Shown here piece after piece: positions 26,992 to 40,000 of a DNA stretch of 40,000 nucleotides. The stretch comes from Lederbergia citri (GTDB taxonomy: Bacteria > Bacillota > Bacilli > Bacillales > Bacillaceae_C). A program made the position numbers and the translations under genes. The stretch is taken from positions 190,342 to 230,341 of the forward strand of contig NZ_JAGYPG010000001.1 in assembly GCF_018343625.1 (NCBI RefSeq). Reading direction: 5' to 3'. A model generated the notes under the pieces. That model was not told the origin of the DNA. It did not search any database and saw nothing but the letters and a program-made list of their open reading frames with translations. Position 1 is the stretch's first letter. Every line of letters starts with the position of its first letter.

Positions 26992-27395
26992 TATCATCAT
27001 TTTTAGATGCAATTGTGGTGAATGTACCTAAAACTGAACGGATTAGGTTTGTGCAAGAAAGAAAGCAGAAATAAAAAGAGATAAACAGTTATCCATTTTT
27101 TAATATTCCAACGCAATTTTGCGGTGTGTTTTTATAAATAAAAACAACCATTAACTCTTCGAAAATCTAAAGAGTGCCACAAAAAATTTTTTTTATCTAA
27201 CTTCTTCCTCGTTCCTAAAAAGTTAAACAGACTATATAACATATATTTGTAAACAATGAGACAAGTGAAGAAGCTTGCACAAGATATTGAAGATCGTTTA
27301 ATTGGTTGTATTAATAAAAGTATATAGAAGGATAATAAGGGAAGAGGATAACTAATTATTCTGTTCCCTTTATTATTTAAGAAAGAGGTATGGTA

Positions 27396-32991: not shown

Positions 32992-33020
32992 TTGACAATA
33001 TACCCAGTACGGTATATTAT
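32992..33020 (+). promoter_or_regulatory. sigma-A promoter with embedded CstR/CsoR-type operator (op1)
   Basis: TTGACA (32992-32997), a 17-nt spacer, then TATTAT (33015-33020). The spacer contains the palindrome ATATACC-CAGTAC-GGTATAT (32998-33017). Confidence 0.65.
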
Positions 33021-33059
33021 AAGTCTTGTCAGCCGCTGAAAGTTAGGAGGACAGTCAAC

Positions 33060-33443
33060 ATGGCGATTGTAATGTTTGTTTTATTAATAGTTGTCGGTTA
33101 CCTGATAGCTATAAGATATTTTCCAATCATAGGACTAAATTATATAGATAATAAGAAAGAACTAGATTTAACAACATTGATTAAAGTAGATGTTAGGGAC
33201 TATAATGAGTCCTATAAAAATCCCGTAAAGGGAGCAATCAATGTTCCAGTTGCATACCTGAAAAGGTACTACTTGGAAATACCAAGTAAAAATCTGATAG
33301 TAGTTGCTTCGAATCGCCTTGAAAAGAATGTTGGTATTCGATTCTTACGTACAAAGGGATTTAAGGTGGTTGGATACACAATTACTAATGAAGAACAAAC
33401 TGTATCAAAGGGAAATCAATTAAATAAAGAAACTTATTGTTAA
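33060..33443 (+). CDS. membrane-anchored rhodanese-homology protein lacking the catalytic Cys
   Basis: N-terminal TM segment. Rhodanese-like fold sequence (VDVRDYNESYKNPVKGAINVP) with VVASNRLEKN where paralogs have CQSGMRS or CRSGxRS. Confidence 0.65.
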   Translation: MAIVMFVLLIVVGYLIAIRYFPIIGLNYIDNKKELDLTTLIKVDVRDYNESYKNPVKGAINVPVAYLKRYYLEIPSKNLIVVASNRLEKNVGIRFLRTKGFKVVGYTITNEEQTVSKGNQLNKETYC

Positions 33444-33456
33444 GGGGGGAAAACAG

Positions 33457-33720
33457 ATGGAATACAACGATCAAATGAAAAACAGAGTAAAGCGCATTGA
33501 AGGACAACTTAGAGGAATCTTAAGAATGATGGAAGAAAATAAAGACTGTAAAGATGTTATCACTCAGTTATCTGCAGCAAGAACAGCAATTGATCGGACA
33601 ATTGGAGTTGTCGTCAGTTCAAATTTAGTGGAATGTGTTCGAAACGCCGAAGAAACTGGTGAGAGAAATACAGAAGAACTACTAAAAGAAGCTGTCAATC
33701 TGCTTGTAAGAAGTAGATAG
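33457..33720 (+). CDS. cstR: CsoR-family repressor of the CstR (persulfide-sensing) type
   Basis: 87 aa of DUF156/CsoR-like sequence (RIEGQLRGILRMMEE). Cys31 and Cys60 are present, with Asn56 where Cu-sensing CsoR has His. This C-N-C pattern and the Cys numbering match what I recall for S. aureus CstR. Confidence 0.7.
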   Translation: MEYNDQMKNRVKRIEGQLRGILRMMEENKDCKDVITQLSAARTAIDRTIGVVVSSNLVECVRNAEETGERNTEELLKEAVNLLVRSR

Positions 33721-33731
33721 AAATAAAGAGG

Positions 33732-33761
33732 TTGACTCTCTTTTATTTTTAATAATATAAT
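33732..33761 (+). promoter_or_regulatory. candidate promoter of the cluster-2 operon (TTGACT-18 nt-TATAAT)
   Basis: -35 at 33732-33737 and -10 at 33756-33761. Operator op2 overlaps the -10 and +1 region. Confidence 0.5.
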
Positions 33762-33774
33762 ACCCATGGGGGTA
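33760..33774. promoter_or_regulatory. CstR/CsoR-type operator op2
   Basis: aTACCC-ATGG-GGGTA palindrome. Confidence 0.6.
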
Positions 33775-33804
33775 GAGATAAGTGTAAAAAAATTATACAG
33801 ATAA

Positions 33805-33819
33805 ATACCCTAATGGGTA
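33805..33819. promoter_or_regulatory. CstR/CsoR-type operator op3
   Basis: aTACCC-TAAT-GGGTA palindrome, about 22 nt before the DsrE-like start. Confidence 0.6.
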
Positions 33820-33841
33820 ACAACAAAGAGGAGGAACAAGC

Positions 33842-34321
33842 ATGACAGAAAAGAAAAAAACCACAATCGTATTATTTAGTGGTGATTATGATAAAGCAAT
33901 GGCAGCTTATATTATTGCAAATGGTGCAGCTGCCTATGATCATGAAGTAACAATTTTCCACACATTTTGGGGGTTAAATGCTCTTCGAAAAGATGAAAAT
34001 ATTCAAGTTAAAAAGGGATTCATGGAAAAGATGTTTGGCAAAATGATGCCAAGAGGTGCTGACAAAATGGGTCTGTCAAAAATGCATTTCGCAGGTTTCG
34101 GTCCTAAAATGATTAAAGATGTGATGAAAAAGCATAATGCAATGCCACTTCCAGATTTAATTGAAATGGCAAAAGAACAAGATGTAAAGCTCGTTGCATG
34201 TACGATGACAATGGATTTATTAGGACTTCAAAAAGAAGAACTTTTAGATAATATTGAATATGCAGGTGTAGCTGCGTATTTAGCAGATGCAGAAGATGGA
34301 AATGTAAATCTATTTATCTAA
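33842..34321 (+). CDS. DsrE/DsrF-like protein (YrkE-like, 159 aa)
   Basis: DsrE-like core with an insert. Conserved Cys in the LVACTMTMDLLG segment. Confidence 0.75.
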   Translation: MTEKKKTTIVLFSGDYDKAMAAYIIANGAAAYDHEVTIFHTFWGLNALRKDENIQVKKGFMEKMFGKMMPRGADKMGLSKMHFAGFGPKMIKDVMKKHNAMPLPDLIEMAKEQDVKLVACTMTMDLLGLQKEELLDNIEYAGVAAYLADAEDGNVNLFI

Positions 34322-34366
34322 ACACGTTAGGGGGATTCTCCCCTACATAAAAAGGAGGGAGTAAGT

Positions 34367-34729
34367 TTGGAATATCTAAATTATATAATTATTGGACTCT
34401 TTCTGTTATTTATCATTAAACGAATCATCCCGGTTAAAGGTGTTAGACAAATTTCAACAACAGATTTAAAAAATGAATTAAAAGATAAGAATAAACAATT
34501 TGTTGACGTTCGTACTCCTGGGGAGTTTAAGGGAAATAACATCAAAGGGTTTAAAAACCTTCCGCTCCAACAACTTGCGCAAAAAGCGGAGAAGGAACTA
34601 TCAAAAGACAAAGAAGTAGTTGTTATATGTCAAAGTGGAATGAGAAGTCAAAATGCTACTAAAATATTAAAAAAATTAGGATTTACGAACGTGACAAATG
34701 TAAAAGGTGGTATGAGTGCCTGGAGATAA
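34367..34729 (+). CDS. membrane-anchored rhodanese sulfurtransferase
   Basis: TTG start after AGGAGGGAG. N-terminal TM segment and active loop CQSGMRS. Confidence 0.8.
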   Translation: MEYLNYIIIGLFLLFIIKRIIPVKGVRQISTTDLKNELKDKNKQFVDVRTPGEFKGNNIKGFKNLPLQQLAQKAEKELSKDKEVVVICQSGMRSQNATKILKKLGFTNVTNVKGGMSAWR

Positions 34730-34744
34730 AAAGGAGGAGAAAAA

Positions 34745-35041
34745 ATGAAGCAGTTATCCGCTAAAGAAGTAGAAACATTATTAGTAGAAGGTCAACCATT
34801 AAACCTAATTGATGTTCGTGAAGTGGAAGAAGTGGAAACTGGGAAAATCCCAGGAGCGATCCACATTCCACTAGGGTTATTAGAATTCCGTTTGCATGAA
34901 TTAGATAAGTCACAAGACTATATCATGGTTTGTCGTTCTGGTGCACGTAGTGGGCGCGCCTGTCAATTTCTTGAAAGTCATGGGTTTAAGGTAACCAACA
35001 TGACAGGCGGAATGCTTGCATGGGAAGGCGAAACAAAATAA
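34745..35041 (+). CDS. single-domain rhodanese sulfurtransferase (cluster 2)
   Basis: Active loop CRSGARS. 98 aa. Confidence 0.85.
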   Translation: MKQLSAKEVETLLVEGQPLNLIDVREVEEVETGKIPGAIHIPLGLLEFRLHELDKSQDYIMVCRSGARSGRACQFLESHGFKVTNMTGGMLAWEGETK

Positions 35042-35064
35042 GGTGATTTTTTTTAGAAGTTAAT

Positions 35065-35079
35065 ATACCCATAAGGGTA
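35065..35079. promoter_or_regulatory. CstR/CsoR-type operator op4 (internal)
   Basis: aTACCC-ATAA-GGGTA palindrome, 22 nt before the TusA-rhodanese start. Confidence 0.6.
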
Positions 35080-35101
35080 ATAAATAGGAGGTTTTTATAT
35101 T

Positions 35102-35677
35102 ATGAATTCATTAAAAACAGATCTTTTATTAGATGCAAAGGGCTTAGCTTGCCCAATGCCTATCGTAAAAACAAAAAAGGCAATGAATGAGTTACAAGCT
35201 GGTCAAGTCTTAGAGGTTCAAGCAACAGATAAAGGGTCAAAAGCTGACCTGGAAGCATGGGCAAAAAGCGCTGGACATCAGTATCTAGGCACAATTGAAC
35301 AAGGAGATGTGTTAAAGCATTACCTTAGAAAATCTTCCAATGATGGAACAATTGAAAGAAAACATCCTAATGTTACAAGTAATGAAGAGCTTGAAAAGAA
35401 GCTTTTAGCAAATGAGAATATTGTAGTTTTAGATGTGAGAGAAGCAGCAGAGTATGCTTTTAACCATATTCCTAATGCAATTTCAATTCCTTTAGGAGAG
35501 TTAGAAAATCGATTCTCAGAATTAAATACAGGAGATGAGATTTATGTGGTTTGCCGAACAGGAAACCGTAGTGATCTTGCAGCTCAAAAGTTAGCTGAAA
35601 AAGGTTTTTCTAATGTAATTAATGTTGTGCCAGGGATGAGTGCTTGGTCAGGCAAAACCAATAGTGTAAATAAATAA
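35102..35677 (+). CDS. TusA-rhodanese fusion sulfurtransferase (YrkF-like, cluster 2)
   Basis: TusA motif DAKGLACPMPIVKTKK plus rhodanese loop CRTGNRS. Confidence 0.85.
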   Translation: MNSLKTDLLLDAKGLACPMPIVKTKKAMNELQAGQVLEVQATDKGSKADLEAWAKSAGHQYLGTIEQGDVLKHYLRKSSNDGTIERKHPNVTSNEELEKKLLANENIVVLDVREAAEYAFNHIPNAISIPLGELENRFSELNTGDEIYVVCRTGNRSDLAAQKLAEKGFSNVINVVPGMSAWSGKTNSVNK

Positions 35678-35692
35678 GGAGGGAAAATTGAT

Positions 35693-35926
35693 ATGAGCAC
35701 AGTAACGGTATACACAACCACACGCTGTCCGTATTGTGTTATGTTAAAGAACTTTTTGGAAGATCAAAATATACCTTTTAGAGAGATAAATGTTGAAGGA
35801 AATCTAGAGATTATGAACCAAATAGTCGCGAAGACGGGTCAAATGGGAGTTCCTCAAACAGAGGTAAATGGTAAGTGGGTTGTTGGTTATGATCCAAATA
35901 ATATAATGCTAGCATTAAGAAACTAG
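35693..35926 (+). CDS. glutaredoxin-like protein (intact, CPYC)
   Basis: 77 aa with TRCPYCVMLKNFL and GQMGVPQTEVNGKWVVGYD. Confidence 0.8.
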   Translation: MSTVTVYTTTRCPYCVMLKNFLEDQNIPFREINVEGNLEIMNQIVAKTGQMGVPQTEVNGKWVVGYDPNNIMLALRN

Positions 35927-35938
35927 GAGGAATTAAGA

Positions 35939-36331
35939 ATGAATAAAGTAGCAATTATAGCAAGTAATGGTGGATTATTTGATGCATATAAAGTGTTTAA
36001 TATTGCAACAGCTGCAGCAGCATCGGATCAGGAAGTAGCGATTTTCTTTACATTTGAAGGATTAAACTTAATCCATAAAGAGTCATACAAACAGCTTCCA
36101 ATGCCGGAGGGAAAAGAACACTTTGCCGAAGGTTTTGCTAATGCAAATGTTCCAGCCATTCCAGAATTGGTAGCAATGGCACAAGAAATGGGTGTTAAGT
36201 TCATTGGTTGTCAAATGACAATGGATGTTATGGGATTAGAAAAAGACTCATTTATTGATGGAATTCAAGTTGGTGGAGCAGTAACCTTTTTAGAATATGC
36301 AAAGGATGCAGATGTAACACTTACTTTTTAA
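35939..36331 (+). CDS. DsrE/DsrF-like family protein (cluster 2)
   Basis: 130 aa with the GCQMTMDVMG segment. Paralog of 29346-29735. Confidence 0.75.
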   Translation: MNKVAIIASNGGLFDAYKVFNIATAAAASDQEVAIFFTFEGLNLIHKESYKQLPMPEGKEHFAEGFANANVPAIPELVAMAQEMGVKFIGCQMTMDVMGLEKDSFIDGIQVGGAVTFLEYAKDADVTLTF

Positions 36332-36357
36332 TCTTAAATATTTTTTTAAATTAAATT

Positions 36358-36372
36358 ATACCGTAGGGGGTA
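36358..36372. promoter_or_regulatory. CstR/CsoR-type operator op5 (internal, one mismatch)
   Basis: aTACCG-TAGG-GGGTA palindrome, about 8 nt before the rhodanese-MBL start. Confidence 0.5.
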
Positions 36373-36379
36373 AAAATAT

Positions 36380-37507
36380 ATGACTGTAAAAGCTATGACT
36401 TCAAAAGAAGTAACTCAAAAAGTATTTAATAAAGAAGAATTGTTTATTCTAGACGTTCGTAACGAAAGTGATTTTCAAGATTGGAAAATTGAAGGTGAAA
36501 ACTTTGACTATCTAAATATCCCGTATTTTGAATTACTGGATGGAGTGGAAGAAATCTTAGAGAAGCTTCCTTCTGATAGAGAAATAGTGGTTGTATGTGC
36601 TAAAGAAGGGTCATCTGTTATGGTGGCAGAGATGCTTTCTGAAGAAGGATTAACAGTTTCCTACTTACAAGGTGGCATGAAAGCATGGAGTGAACACTTA
36701 GAACCAGTTAAAGTTGGGGAATTAAGAGATGGAGGCAAAGTGTATCAGTTCGTTCGTATCGGAAAAGGATGTCTATCATACATGGTTACTTCAAACGGTG
36801 AAGCTGCGATTATCGATGCAACTCGTATGACTGACATTTATCTTGATTTTGCAAATGAAATTGGAGCAAAAATTACGCATGTTTTTGATACACACCTTCA
36901 TGCTGACCATATTTCAGGAGGAAGAGTGATTGCTGAGAGAACAGGTGCAACATATTGGTTACCTCCAAAAGATGCGACAGAAGTAACATTTGAGTACGAG
37001 GCTCTAGAAGGTGGAAATGTAGTGACAATCGGAAATACGGCGATTGATATTCATGCGCTATACTCTCCAGGTCATACGATCGGTTCTACATCTTTTGTTG
37101 TTGATGAAAAGTTCCTTCTTTCAGGAGATATATTATTCATCGATTCAATTGGAAGACCAGACCTTGCTGGTATGGCAGAGGATTGGGTAGCAGATTTAAG
37201 AGAAAGTCTGTACTTACGCTACAGAGAGCTATCAGAAGATTTAGTTGTTCTGCCAGCACACTTTATGATCATTGATGAATTGAATGACGATGGTAGTGTA
37301 TCAGAAAAATTAGGAACACTGTTTGCAAAAAATCACGGTTTAAACATTGAAGACGAAAATGAGTTCAGAAAACTAGTAACAGAAAACCTACCACCACAAC
37401 CAAATGCGTATCAAGAAATTCGTGAAACAAACATGGGGAAAATCAACCCTGATGAAGAAAAACAACGTGAAATGGAAATCGGACCAAACCGTTGTGCGGT
37501 TAGATAA
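36380..37507 (+). CDS. rhodanese-MBL fusion, persulfide-dioxygenase-like (YrkH/CstB-like, cluster 2)
   Basis: It shows the same motifs as 30002-31138 ([27 protein letters not shown]). Confidence 0.8.
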
Positions 37508-37532
37508 AAATTAATTTTAGGAGGAATAAACA

Positions 37533-37760
37533 ATGGAATCAACTAAAGTTTTAGACGCAAAAGGATTAGCATGTCCAATGCCAATTGTAAAAACAAAAAA
37601 AGCTATGAATGACTTAGCAACAGGAGAAGTTCTAGAAATTCATGCAACAGATAAGGGTGCTAAAAACGACCTGACAGCTTGGGCAACATCTGGTGGTCAT
37701 GAATTAATTAAACATGAAGAAGAAAATGATGTATTTAAATTTTGGATTAAAAAAGGTTGA
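37533..37760 (+). CDS. TusA-family sulfur carrier (YrkI-like, cluster 2)
   Basis: 75 aa. By my hand count, 62 of 75 residues are identical to the cluster-1 copy. Confidence 0.85.
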   Translation: MESTKVLDAKGLACPMPIVKTKKAMNDLATGEVLEIHATDKGAKNDLTAWATSGGHELIKHEEENDVFKFWIKKG

Positions 37761-37765
37761 AAAAT

Positions 37766-37796
37766 AAGGGGGAGCCTATGTAGGGTTCCCTTTTTT
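37766..37796 (+). terminator. hairpin plus T-run between tusA-like and tauE-like genes (cluster 2)
   Basis: GGGAGCC-tatgtag-GGTTCCC stem, extendable by G-U and A-U pairs, followed by TTTTTT. Confidence 0.55.
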
Positions 37797-37813
37797 CAAA
37801 AGGAGGTAACAAG

Positions 37814-38590
37814 ATGGATTTTGGATTTATTATTACAATATTTTTAATCGGATTTATCGGATCATACATTTCTGGAATGTTAGGTATTGGTGGGTCAATT
37901 ATTAAATACCCAATGTTATTATATATTCCACCATTATTTGGCTTAGCCGCTTTTAGTGCTCATGAGGTTTCTGGTATAAGTGCGATTCAAGTATTCTTTG
38001 CAACCATTGGTGGAGTTTGGGCATACCGAAAAGGTGGATATTTAAATAAAACGTTAATCATGTATATGGGTGCTAGTATTTTAGTAGGTAGTTTTGTTGG
38101 AGGATTTGGATCAAAGTTAATGTCAGAAGGAGGCATTAATTTAATTTATGGGATACTAGCTTTAATTGCAGCTGTGATGATGTTTATTCCGAAAAAGGGG
38201 ATAGATGATATCCCTTTAGATCAGGTGAAATTTAATAAATGGCTCGCAGCAATCTTAGCCCTTATTGTTGGTGTAGGTGCTGGAATCGTCGGGGCAGCAG
38301 GAGCCTTTTTATTAGTGCCAATCATGTTAGTGGTATTAAAAATTCCAACAAGAATGACAATCGCATCATCACTAGCAATTACGTTTATATCATCAATAGG
38401 TGCAACTGTCGGTAAAATTACAACTGGACAGATTGATTATTTCCCTGCTTTTATTATGGTCGTTGCAAGTTTACTTGCTTCCCCATTAGGAGCAATAGCT
38501 GGAAAAAAAGTGAATACAAAAATACTACAAATTATTTTGGCGTTATTAATTGGAGCTACTGCTGTTAAGATTTGGTTAGATATCTTATAA
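37814..38590 (+). CDS. TauE/SafE-family (DUF81) membrane transporter (YrkJ-like, cluster 2)
   Basis: 258 aa, highly similar to 31439-32218. Confidence 0.8.
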
Positions 38591-38642
38591 AAATAGGGGA
38601 AAATAAAACATAAAATTAGCTTATCTGAAAGAAGGGCTAAAA

Positions 38643-38990
38643 ATGACAAATAAGAAATACATCTATTTTGTATCGTTAAGTTCAAATGTTCCCTATGTAC
38701 TAAAGAAATCGATTGAAATGGTCAACCCAAAAAATGAAGTCACCATATTTTTTGATCTTGATGGAGCCCGTGTTTTAGATAAACGTTATTTAAAAAAAGT
38801 GACGAGAACGCATGGAGTGGATCTAGTCTCACTTTTTAAAATAGCTTTAGAGGCAGGGATTAAATTGTATGGTTGTCAAATGAACGTGTTAATTGCAGAT
38901 GGTTTGGAATTAATAGATGGAGCAGAGCTTGCAGGCGTTGTTACCTTTTTAGAAGCAGCCTACCAAGCTGATGCTGTTTTAAGCTATTAA
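38643..38990 (+). CDS. DsrE-like small protein with conserved Cys (115 aa)
   Basis: LYGCQMNV and GAELAGVVTFLE segments parallel the DsrE-like paralogs. No terminator lies after the tauE-like gene. Confidence 0.6.
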   Translation: MTNKKYIYFVSLSSNVPYVLKKSIEMVNPKNEVTIFFDLDGARVLDKRYLKKVTRTHGVDLVSLFKIALEAGIKLYGCQMNVLIADGLELIDGAELAGVVTFLEAAYQADAVLSY

Positions 38991-39004
38991 GAGGGGGACT
39001 AAAC

Positions 39005-39385
39005 ATGAATAAGAAAAAGGTTGTAGTATTAGCACTTCATGATGAATTAGAGTCTGCTTACCCACCCTTAAATGTTGCCGTTGGAGCTGCTTCATCCGGG
39101 GCTGATGTGATCTTAGCCTTCTCACGAAAAGGAGTAAACATTTTAGACCATAAATACATTCCTATTCCATCGGATGGAATTGAATACTTGTCTAATGCGC
39201 TATCTGATTTTAACGCACCTTCAATTAACGATTTACTTGAGATAGCTGTTGAATCTGGTGTTAAATTTTATGTGGTGGACTTAGATATAAAGGACCATAC
39301 GCAATTTAAGTATCCAGCTGAGCAAGTCCCCATTAAATGGGTTTTAAATGAGGCAGTTTCAGCGGATTTATTTGTACATTTTTAA
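39005..39385 (+). CDS. DsrE/DsrF-like small protein lacking the active-site Cys (126 aa)
   Basis: Same fold-type pattern (VVVLALHD..., GVKFYVVDLD) but with no Cys at all. Confidence 0.55.
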   Translation: MNKKKVVVLALHDELESAYPPLNVAVGAASSGADVILAFSRKGVNILDHKYIPIPSDGIEYLSNALSDFNAPSINDLLEIAVESGVKFYVVDLDIKDHTQFKYPAEQVPIKWVLNEAVSADLFVHF

Positions 39386-39404
39386 ATATATAGGAGGAAT
39401 AACG

Positions 39405-39680
39405 TTGATTAAAATTACAGATGCTGCGATATCAAAAATAAGACAAGAAGTTAAAGATGTAAAAAAACCGGTTATTCGTCTTGCAATGGGCATTGGTTGA
39501 GGGGGACCTCAGCTTCGCCTGGCTCTGGAAGAGTCAGCTTTAGAAAATGATGAAATCATTGAACAAGACGGCATAAGTTTTTTAGTACATGAAACAAGTA
39601 AACCATATTTTAATAATGTCAAAATTGATTATACCAAGACCATATTGGGTGGCGGGCAATTTATTGTCCTTACACTATAA
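39405..39680 (+). CDS. HesB/IscA-like ORF interrupted by an in-frame TGA at 39498-39500 (Sec candidate, readthrough or pseudogene)
   Basis: TTG start 7 nt after AGGAGG. The frame reads IKITDAAISKIRQEVKDVKKPVIRLAMGIG-TGA-GGPQLRLALEESALENDEIIEQDGISFLVHETSKPYFNNVKIDYTKTILGGGQFIVLTL. The stop falls where IscA/HesB proteins have the Cys of the GGGCSG block. The frame stays open for 59 more codons. Confidence 0.5.
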
Positions 39681-39704
39681 GTACATCTGAAAGCAGGAGT
39701 TTCT

Positions 39705-40000
39705 TTGAAGATTAAAACAATAGCATTATATCTACCCATTGTCATTTTAGTATTATATTTTGTCTATACCCAGTTTGAAAATAAAAGTATTAAAACAATT
39801 TCAATTAATGAGTTGGAGCAAAAATTACAGGATCCCAAATCAAGTAACATAATCTTTGTTGATGTGCGTGAACCCCATGAATATGAAGCAGGTCATATTA
39901 AAGGGATGAAAAACATTCCACTAAGCACATTAAAATCCGATTATAAAGGTCTGTCTAAAGATGCGGAAATCGTTCTATTGTGTAGGAGTGGGAAACGAAG
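39705..40000 (+). CDS. membrane-anchored rhodanese sulfurtransferase (3' end outside window)
   Basis: TTG start after GCAGGAG. N-terminal TM segment, VDVREPHEYEAGHIKG and the start of the active loop CRSGKR at the window edge. Confidence 0.7.
   Translation, partial: MKIKTIALYLPIVILVLYFVYTQFENKSIKTISINELEQKLQDPKSSNIIFVDVREPHEYEAGHIKGMKNIPLSTLKSDYKGLSKDAEIVLLCRSGKR

Follow-up and report, generated by a model that had tools for sequence, protein, structure and literature searches.

What are the genes that extend a CstR-type sulfur cluster in Lederbergia citri beyond its usual end, and how is the one among them that contains an in-frame TGA codon to be read? The cluster concerned (cluster 2) lies near the right edge of the window, by which we mean the whole stretch of 40,000 nucleotides analysed here (contig NZ_JAGYPG010000001.1, positions 190,342 to 230,341; G000:C1:190342-230341, where G000 is the source genome). 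An earlier note on this DNA had claimed that cluster 2 runs on past its TauE/SafE gene into four tightly spaced genes, encoding a DsrE-like protein with a conserved Cys, a Cys-free DsrE-like partner, a HesB/IscA-like open reading frame (ORF) with the TGA, and a membrane-anchored rhodanese. Matches to Pfam and NCBIfam profiles, which were used to assign gene families, agreed with these identities, and the gaps between the genes were 14-52 nt. Cluster 1, the other sulfur cluster, lacks such an extension according to the gene list. As the note had supposed, we found no description of the four-gene set in the literature. We consider it likely that the genes form part of a mobile accessory block on a CstR-type persulfide-detoxification operon, and that the selenoprotein genes of this block are recently stranded passengers in the present host.

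In-frame TGA codons in two small genes

The HesB-like ORF exceeded the PF01521 cut-off of 26.3 bits (Table 1) and aligned with the IscA-like protein 1NWB over residues 2-85 (E = 8e-12). In this alignment its TGA codon fell on the Cys of GGCSGFQ in 1NWB, which in IscA-type proteins is the first cluster ligand. Orthologs were found in six of 60 related genomes, all six from other families. Their identities were 44-66%, every one of them had a single in-frame TGA, and TGA occupied the same column of all seven aligned orthologs, within the motif G-(I/A)-G-U-G-G-P-Q. HesB-like selenoproteins are a known family with a UxGP motif (PMC1794560, PMC13188914), and the U-G-G-P of the ORF matches this motif as tabulated in PMC13188914.

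We surveyed 401 genomes, an even sample of the order Bacillales, and found an ortholog of the HesB-like gene with its putative selenocysteine (Sec) codon, hereafter HesB(Sec), in 55 of them. The TGA was present in all of these apart from a single frameshifted fragment, and the search returned no Cys form of the clade. The selenocysteine synthase gene selA was found in 52 of the 55 carriers, against 184 of the 401 genomes overall. Carrier and selA lists were compared by hand; related genomes are not independent, and counts are given in place of a statistical test. Full-length homologs in databases all show "W" at the Sec site, where the underlying DNA, including that from metagenomes, reads TGA. 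The RefSeq entries for HesB(Sec) consist solely of C-terminal fragments of 52-55 residues named 'hypothetical protein'.

Counted from the U of the UGA, a hairpin with a 7-bp stem and a GGA loop occupies nt 22-38, and its stem was 100% paired in the seven orthologs. It contains one compensatory pair (G-U to U-A), and third-codon positions were invariant inside the stem and variable outside it. Across the genome, the loose motif GGCUC(N)UGGNA(N)GAGYC had only two occurrences, each of them within this module. As a general signature of selenocysteine insertion sequences (SECIS) the motif was rejected: in five Sec-decoding genomes it was confined to HesB(Sec) and to the family of the small ORF described below. 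Taken at the level of sequence, the TGA of the HesB-like gene is best read as the selenocysteine codon of a conserved family.

Curated models did not accommodate this family. The ORF scored 28.8 bits against TIGR01911 (cut-off 66.35) and 49.7 bits against NF038090 (cut-off 85), and six orthologs from Sec-decoding genomes likewise remained below the cut-offs, with clade ranges of 26-29 and 36-55 bits, respectively. The Bacillales HesB(Sec) clade is thereby best regarded as separate and uncurated. A HesB(Sec) subgroup that is less closely related (42-58% identity) was observed in 16 genomes (G053, G054, G088, G093, G101, G119, G137, G198, G242, G268, G293, G316, G339, G396, G402 and G416), where the gene shared a contig with selA, at a distance of about 2-25 kb. 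In some copies of this subgroup the last residue is a Cys (…GNC, …GGC), which is absent from the copy in the window.

Beyond the window edge, the apparent gap of 225 nt after the rhodanese gene holds a second candidate, a 47-codon ORF reading MNKDHNNCGKGS-U-GIPNKKSRSFFPPI-U-PGILVWLLVGVIVLIQRMF, which gene callers had overlooked altogether. Both TGAs are conserved in eleven orthologs, together with a Cys located five residues ahead of the first TGA, the P-P-I-U-P-G stretch and a C-terminal hydrophobic helix, so that the family motif can be written as C-x4-U ... P-P-I-U-P-G in a predicted tail-anchored protein. An 8-bp hairpin, UGGCUCCU-GGN-AGGAGUCA, begins 15 nt past the second TGA and was 98.9% paired. 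A profile of the small ORF matched 50 of the 401 genomes in 27 genera, nearly always with exactly two TGAs, and 48 of these 50 carriers had selA; the two exceptions were the source genome and G406, a genome of another family. In Bacillus sp. 1P06AnD a homolog with Cys at both positions (P0128) directly follows two rhodanese genes. In other loci the small ORF was preceded by TauE, by rhodanese genes or by the DsrE pair, or was followed by CstR, and in G054 we observed it 1.6 kb from selA.

Searches of the small ORF against Pfam and NCBIfam at E values up to 10 gave no match, and it was not found among the 119 selenoprotein families tabulated in a 2026 catalogue (PMC13188914). It displays the classical marks of a selenoprotein gene, namely conserved TGA codons, a Cys homolog, a downstream hairpin and restriction to genomes with the Sec trait. 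It looks like a new family of double-selenocysteine microproteins tied to rhodanese/CstR clusters.

Selenium use and the shared block

Searches of the source genome for the machinery that decodes UGA as Sec were negative. A profile search did not find selA in this genome, the best selB match in it (189 bits) was EF-Tu-like and without the SelB winged-helix domain, and neither ARAGORN nor Rfam found a tRNA-Sec in it. The same searches in two HesB(Sec) carriers taken as positive controls (G169 and G039) gave SelB at 370 bits, tRNA-Sec at 61-65 bits, and selA. Neither selA nor an ortholog of the HesB-like gene was found in 17 genomes of the same genus. selD is present and adjoins mnmH, which encodes the tRNA 2-selenouridine synthase (C3:215936-217940), and would therefore serve selenouridine formation. 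A tRNA-like match near selD was rejected as a tRNA-Sec; it is a tRNA-Ser(CGA), located about 1.4 kb downstream. The gene content thus indicates that the strain uses selenium in tRNA modification and not in proteins.

Since selA, selB and tRNA-Sec were not found, the HesB-like gene appears to be stranded in this host. Its product should end at residue 31, leaving a 31-residue stub, and the small ORF should give a stub of 12 residues.

The stranded genes are part of a larger shared segment. From window position 27326 to window-equivalent position 42931 (about 15.6 kb), the source genome is collinear with G406, at 84-91% nucleotide identity (counterpart at G406:C1:4241138-4255698). The shared block includes the two sulfur clusters and all of the extension, and stops 12 nt past the TehB-like gene. 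The G406 copy lacks the DsrE2-like gene at 33842-34321 and the window segment 32337-32831. A tyrosine recombinase gene was observed just outside the block.

Like the source genome, G406 yielded no selA, selB or tRNA-Sec. Its island copy of the HesB-like gene (among loci L084 and L071) is interrupted by an additional TAA at codon 11 and is also frameshifted. In the same genome, a second copy of the small ORF contains an extra TAG. As a side observation, the family of G406 is mostly selA-positive (12 of 14 genomes), which suggests that the Sec trait was lost recently in G406. The HesB gene is also frameshifted in G322 (locus L099), again a genome in which selA, selB and tRNA-Sec were not found. 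An island variant with 86-97% amino-acid identity occurs in G103, which has selA. Because of the copies in G406, G322 and G103, we interpret the block as moving between families, with selenoprotein genes that probably decay where Sec is not decoded. The intact copies in L. citri would then point to a recent arrival.

With regard to the proposed co-occurrence of the four families, the exact four-gene set was confined to island copies of this one mobile block, namely those in the source genome, in G406 and on metagenome contigs L049-L053, with a partial copy on L054; what does recur broadly is HesB(Sec) after TauE. Two of the metagenome copies showed peculiarities. In L049, the closest copy (92% HesB identity), the anchored rhodanese appears frameshifted (2124-2342), through either assembly error or decay. 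In L054 (JGI metagenome 3300002963), two abutting ORF fragments at 1118-1725, seemingly a broken gene, lie between HesB(Sec) and an OsmC-like gene.

Gene order and the persulfide neighbourhood

The features at the end of cluster 2 and beyond the window edge are listed in Table 1. In line with the earlier note, a terminator scan and folding of the interval after TauE revealed no intrinsic terminator between TauE and the first DsrE-like gene, and an Rfam scan of positions 33000-40000 gave no matches. A weak terminator-like site within the Cys-less DsrE gene (39329-39341; 5 bp, 3 GC pairs) was judged a chance occurrence. Successive gaps between TauE, the DsrE-like gene, its Cys-less partner, the HesB-like gene and the rhodanese gene measured 52, 14, 19 and 24 nt, with all genes on the forward strand. 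The module had been expected to continue past position 40,000, and reading on indeed gave the complete rhodanese gene, the two-TGA ORF, a terminator and a further unit of four genes.

Table 1. Features from the end of cluster 2 onwards. Positions refer to the window; window-equivalent positions beyond its edge equal the position in locus L002 + 37658.
Feature	Position	Strand	Remarks
TauE/SafE gene, last in CstR-type cluster 2	37814..38590	+	PF01925 145.8 bits
Terminator-free 52-nt gap	38591..38642	+	only a weak hairpin, -8.9 kcal/mol, without U tract
DsrE-like protein with active-site Cys, 115 residues	38643..38990	+	PF13686 35.8 bits
Cys-less DsrE-fold partner, 126 residues	39005..39385	+	PF13686 35.2 bits, N-terminal 47 residues only
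HesB/IscA-like selenoprotein gene, 91 codons	39405..39680	+	TTG 39405 to TAA 39680; PF01521 44.5 bits
In-frame TGA (putative Sec codon), codon 32 of the HesB-like ORF	39498..39500	+	motif G-I-G-U-G-G-P
SECIS-like hairpin	39520..39536	+	UGGCUCU-GGA-AGAGUCA; paired in 7/7 orthologs
Membrane-anchored rhodanese, cut by window end	39705..40000	+	TTG 39705; ends at window-equivalent 40097; 130 residues; PF00581 79.2 bits
Two-TGA 47-codon ORF	window-equivalent 40119-40262 (L002 2461-2604)	+	both TGAs conserved; no Pfam/NCBIfam family
Terminator	window-equivalent 40263-40288		-20.5 kcal/mol, z = -4.8
220-residue membrane protein	window-equivalent 40323-40985 (L002 2665-3327)		no Pfam family
CcdA (DsbD_TM)	window-equivalent 41005-41730
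ResA/StoA-like thiol-disulfide oxidoreductase	window-equivalent 41727-42293
TehB-like methyltransferase	window-equivalent 42320-42919
Tyrosine recombinase	window-equivalent 43484-44308	-

On the same strand 5' of the extension, cluster 2 comprises CstR, rhodanese/TusA/DsrE carriers, a dioxygenase with metallo-β-lactamase (MBL) and rhodanese domains, and TauE. This gene order recurs 5' of HesB(Sec) in other families, and the cluster 2 TauE shares 86-97% identity with TauE genes directly 5' of HesB(Sec) or of the DsrE pair in other families. HesB(Sec) was the next gene after the end of a cst/yrk-like cluster (...MBL-rhodanese, TusA, TauE) in 10 or more loci, which belong to several families. The gene directly 5' of HesB(Sec) was TauE in most of these loci; in two it was TusA or the MBL-rhodanese gene. 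The extension can therefore be seen as something that recurs in the cst/yrk-like clusters of Sec-decoding Bacillales.

In the first DsrE-like protein the Cys lies in LYGCQM; the Cys of the motif (Y/F)GCQ(M/L) was invariant in 16 of 16 orthologs, and it aligned with the Cys of the DsrE-like protein of cluster 2. A PDB relative is 3MC3. Where this paralog has GCQM, the Cys-less partner has VVDL. An AlphaFold model of the partner (predicted local distance difference test, pLDDT, 89.4; predicted template-modelling score, pTM, 0.83) had its best Foldseek matches in 3PNX and 2QS7 (TM scores 0.81-0.82), with 3MC3 also matched and YchN and DsrEFH further down, and the model thus indicates a full DsrE fold. 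The Cys-less gene stood directly 3' of its Cys-bearing paralog in 12 of 12 further loci and in the island copies. Because of this fixed adjacency and the invariant Cys in one subunit only, the pair would fit a heteromer resembling DsrEFH/TusBCD, as the earlier note had suggested. Both genes were found in 20 of the 401 genomes, of which 18 had selA, and homologs in many Bacillales are annotated as "peroxiredoxin family" or "DsrE/DsrF/DrsH-like". The idea that the pair always precedes HesB(Sec) was rejected, as in the 12 further loci the pair either ends the operon or is followed only by the two-Sec ORF.

The anchored rhodanese has an N-terminal hydrophobic helix and a catalytic loop CRSGKRS at residues 93-99, which fits C-R-x-G-x-R-[ST]. 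The 220-residue protein is a multi-pass membrane protein with a faint Lgt-like match (19.6 bits). It was seen to travel with a ResA-like gene beside HesB(Sec) in several families (L043, L082, L054).

From this arrangement we propose the following scheme. The first unit would consist of five genes, encoding the DsrE-like protein with the Cys, its Cys-less partner, the HesB-like protein with one Sec, the anchored rhodanese and the 47-residue protein with two Sec. A strong terminator would close this unit, and the membrane protein, CcdA, the ResA-like and the TehB-like protein would form a second one. Co-transcription of the extension with cluster 2 is plausible because no terminator follows TauE. 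In Sec-decoding Bacillales the TGAs would be read as selenocysteine, helped by the hairpins about 20 nt downstream. To judge by their families and gene neighbours, the rhodanese, TusA and DsrE proteins would act as carriers of sulfane sulfur in these hosts. The selenols of the two selenoproteins, being highly nucleophilic, may accept this sulfur or release it reductively. Reductant for the outer side of the membrane could come from the CcdA/ResA pair, and the TehB-like enzyme may point to a wider chalcogen stress. In L. citri the three UGA codons would terminate translation, and the products would be limited to the two DsrE-like proteins, the rhodanese and the proteins of the second unit.

Alternative explanations and known systems

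Several observations weigh against the explanation of stranded passengers on a mobile persulfide-detoxification block. Apart from the TGAs both selenoprotein ORFs are intact in L. citri, as are both hairpins, and they show few amino-acid changes, which fits continued function too. In the small ORF, the candidate hairpin assigned to the first TGA spans the second TGA and was 64.8% paired with little covariation. The assembly consists of 9 contigs and 1710 bases lie outside the sequence that was searched, so the absence of Sec machinery is not absolute. Finally, the proposed sulfur-relay chemistry is derived from family membership and neighbourhood only.

Intact ORFs and hairpins would be expected if the UGAs were still decoded in this host, through readthrough by near-cognate tRNA-Trp or tRNA-Cys or by another route, giving low levels of full-length proteins under selection. 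UGA readthrough by tRNA-Trp has been reported for Bacillus subtilis. The ratio of nonsynonymous to synonymous substitution rates (dN/dS) of the HesB-like gene against the 92%-identical metagenome copy was 0.19, and the small ORF had 0 nonsynonymous among 3 changes against its closest copy, values based on so few substitutions that they are as compatible with recent stranding as with continued function. However, the low dN/dS may predate the transfer and reflect Sec-decoding hosts, given the island in the selA-positive genome G103. Moreover, neither ARAGORN nor Rfam revealed a suppressor gene or one resembling tRNA-Sec, a Trp at the catalytic Sec/Cys position would probably be inactive, and the HesB copies of two other hosts without Sec decoding carry extra stops or frameshifts. 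We consider continued decoding unlikely, and its special form, in which the host decodes the three UGAs by a SelB-independent route, more unlikely still.

The earlier note had proposed a relay at the membrane, in which the DsrE/F-type pair, a HesB-type scaffold and the anchored rhodanese supply an Fe-S or cofactor pathway with sulfur from persulfides or with selenium. The HesB/IscA fold, the conserved DsrE pair and the anchored rhodanese speak for such a relay, as does the use of selenium in this genome through selD and mnmH. Yet compared with the ligands of A-type carriers (C ... C-G-C), the HesB-like ORF has only the U position; its C-terminus, GGGQFIVLTL, lacks the CGC, which leaves one reactive residue, and it scores below the cut-offs for IscA, SufA and ErpA. 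Every recurrent neighbour of HesB(Sec) is a persulfide-handling gene, no Fe-S or cofactor genes were found near the HesB(Sec) loci examined, and the HesB-like protein cannot be completed in a host without Sec decoding. Hence, this proposal did not hold up well, and we regard it as improbable.

If the Sec machinery had merely been missed in the unsearched bases, both ORFs would be ordinary working selenoprotein genes. However, assembly completeness is 99.76%, and 1710 bases are too few for selA, selB and selC, which together need about 3.5 kb. The control genomes were positive with the same searches, and selA was found in 0 of the 17 genomes of the same genus. This possibility is very improbable. 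That an otherwise normal IscA-like gene acquired the TGA through a sequencing error or a chance nonsense mutation has nothing in its favour but the bare presence of a stop codon; it is refuted by the TGA column that full-length orthologs of the 55 carriers and many metagenome contigs share and by the lack of a Cys form in the clade.

The explanation that we favour, stranded selenoprotein genes on a mobile block, places the locus beside several known systems. With HesB-like selenoproteins (TIGR01911) it has in common the HesB/IscA fold, Sec in the position of the first ligand Cys, UxGP and a SECIS-type hairpin just downstream. This family is said to have been described by Kryukov and Gladyshev in 2004. 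The Bacillales clade differs in its scores below the curated cut-offs, in that no Cys form was found, in its position at the end of CstR-type operons and, here, in a host without Sec decoding. The cst operon of Staphylococcus aureus and the yrk operon of Bacillus subtilis contain CstR, TusA-rhodanese-DsrE carriers, a CstB-type MBL-rhodanese persulfide dioxygenase and TauE. Cluster 2 shares this gene content, with TauE last, and the extension follows on the same strand. To our knowledge, the described cst/yrk operons end at TauE, and lack a DsrE pair, a HesB-like gene, a two-Sec microprotein and a CcdA/ResA/TehB unit.

The DsrE pair resembles DsrEFH/TusBCD in its adjacent paralogous DsrE-fold subunits with the reactive Cys in one of them, and 2HY5 (DsrEFH) was among the fold matches. 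It differs in having two paralogs instead of three and in belonging to the PF13686 (DsrE_2) branch; no DsrH/TusB- or DsrC/TusE-like gene, and no dsr/tus partner, was seen in the block. A further parallel is the Tso multi-selenoprotein system tabulated in PMC13188914, which includes TsoB (NF045694), a selenoprotein fused from rhodanese, DsbD and thioredoxin-like parts. Both loci combine several selenoprotein genes, and the rhodanese, CcdA and ResA-like proteins match successive parts of TsoB (34.5 bits over 39-151, 54.8 bits over 187-387 and 22.6 bits over 457-534, respectively). In contrast to Tso, these are separate genes with Cys that score far under the 805-bit cut-off, the selenoproteins belong to other families, and no matches to TsoA, TsoC, TsoX or TsoY were seen in the block.

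New elements of this locus are a host in which Sec is apparently not decoded, a mobile block with decay in other such hosts, a DsrE pair that appears obligate and tied to Sec-decoding genomes, and the two-Sec microprotein. For annotation, an in-frame TGA at this locus should be taken neither as 'selenoprotein made' nor as 'random pseudogene'. The locus would be a clean natural case of selenoprotein genes carried by an island into non-decoding hosts, intact here and decaying elsewhere, and it bears on the Sec trait as a limit to horizontal gene flow.

HesB-like selenoproteins have been tabulated for about twenty years without an assigned function. With a Cys-free clade fixed at the ends of CstR-type operons, present in about one in seven of the Bacillales genomes surveyed, a role in sulfane-sulfur chemistry can be put to the test. 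On balance, we lean towards an uncatalogued selenium-dependent persulfide branch in aerobic Bacillales, in which two unannotated selenoproteins would act with rhodanese/TusA/DsrE carriers under CstR control. If true, this branch would provide the first functional context for HesB-like selenoproteins and add a new selenoprotein family.

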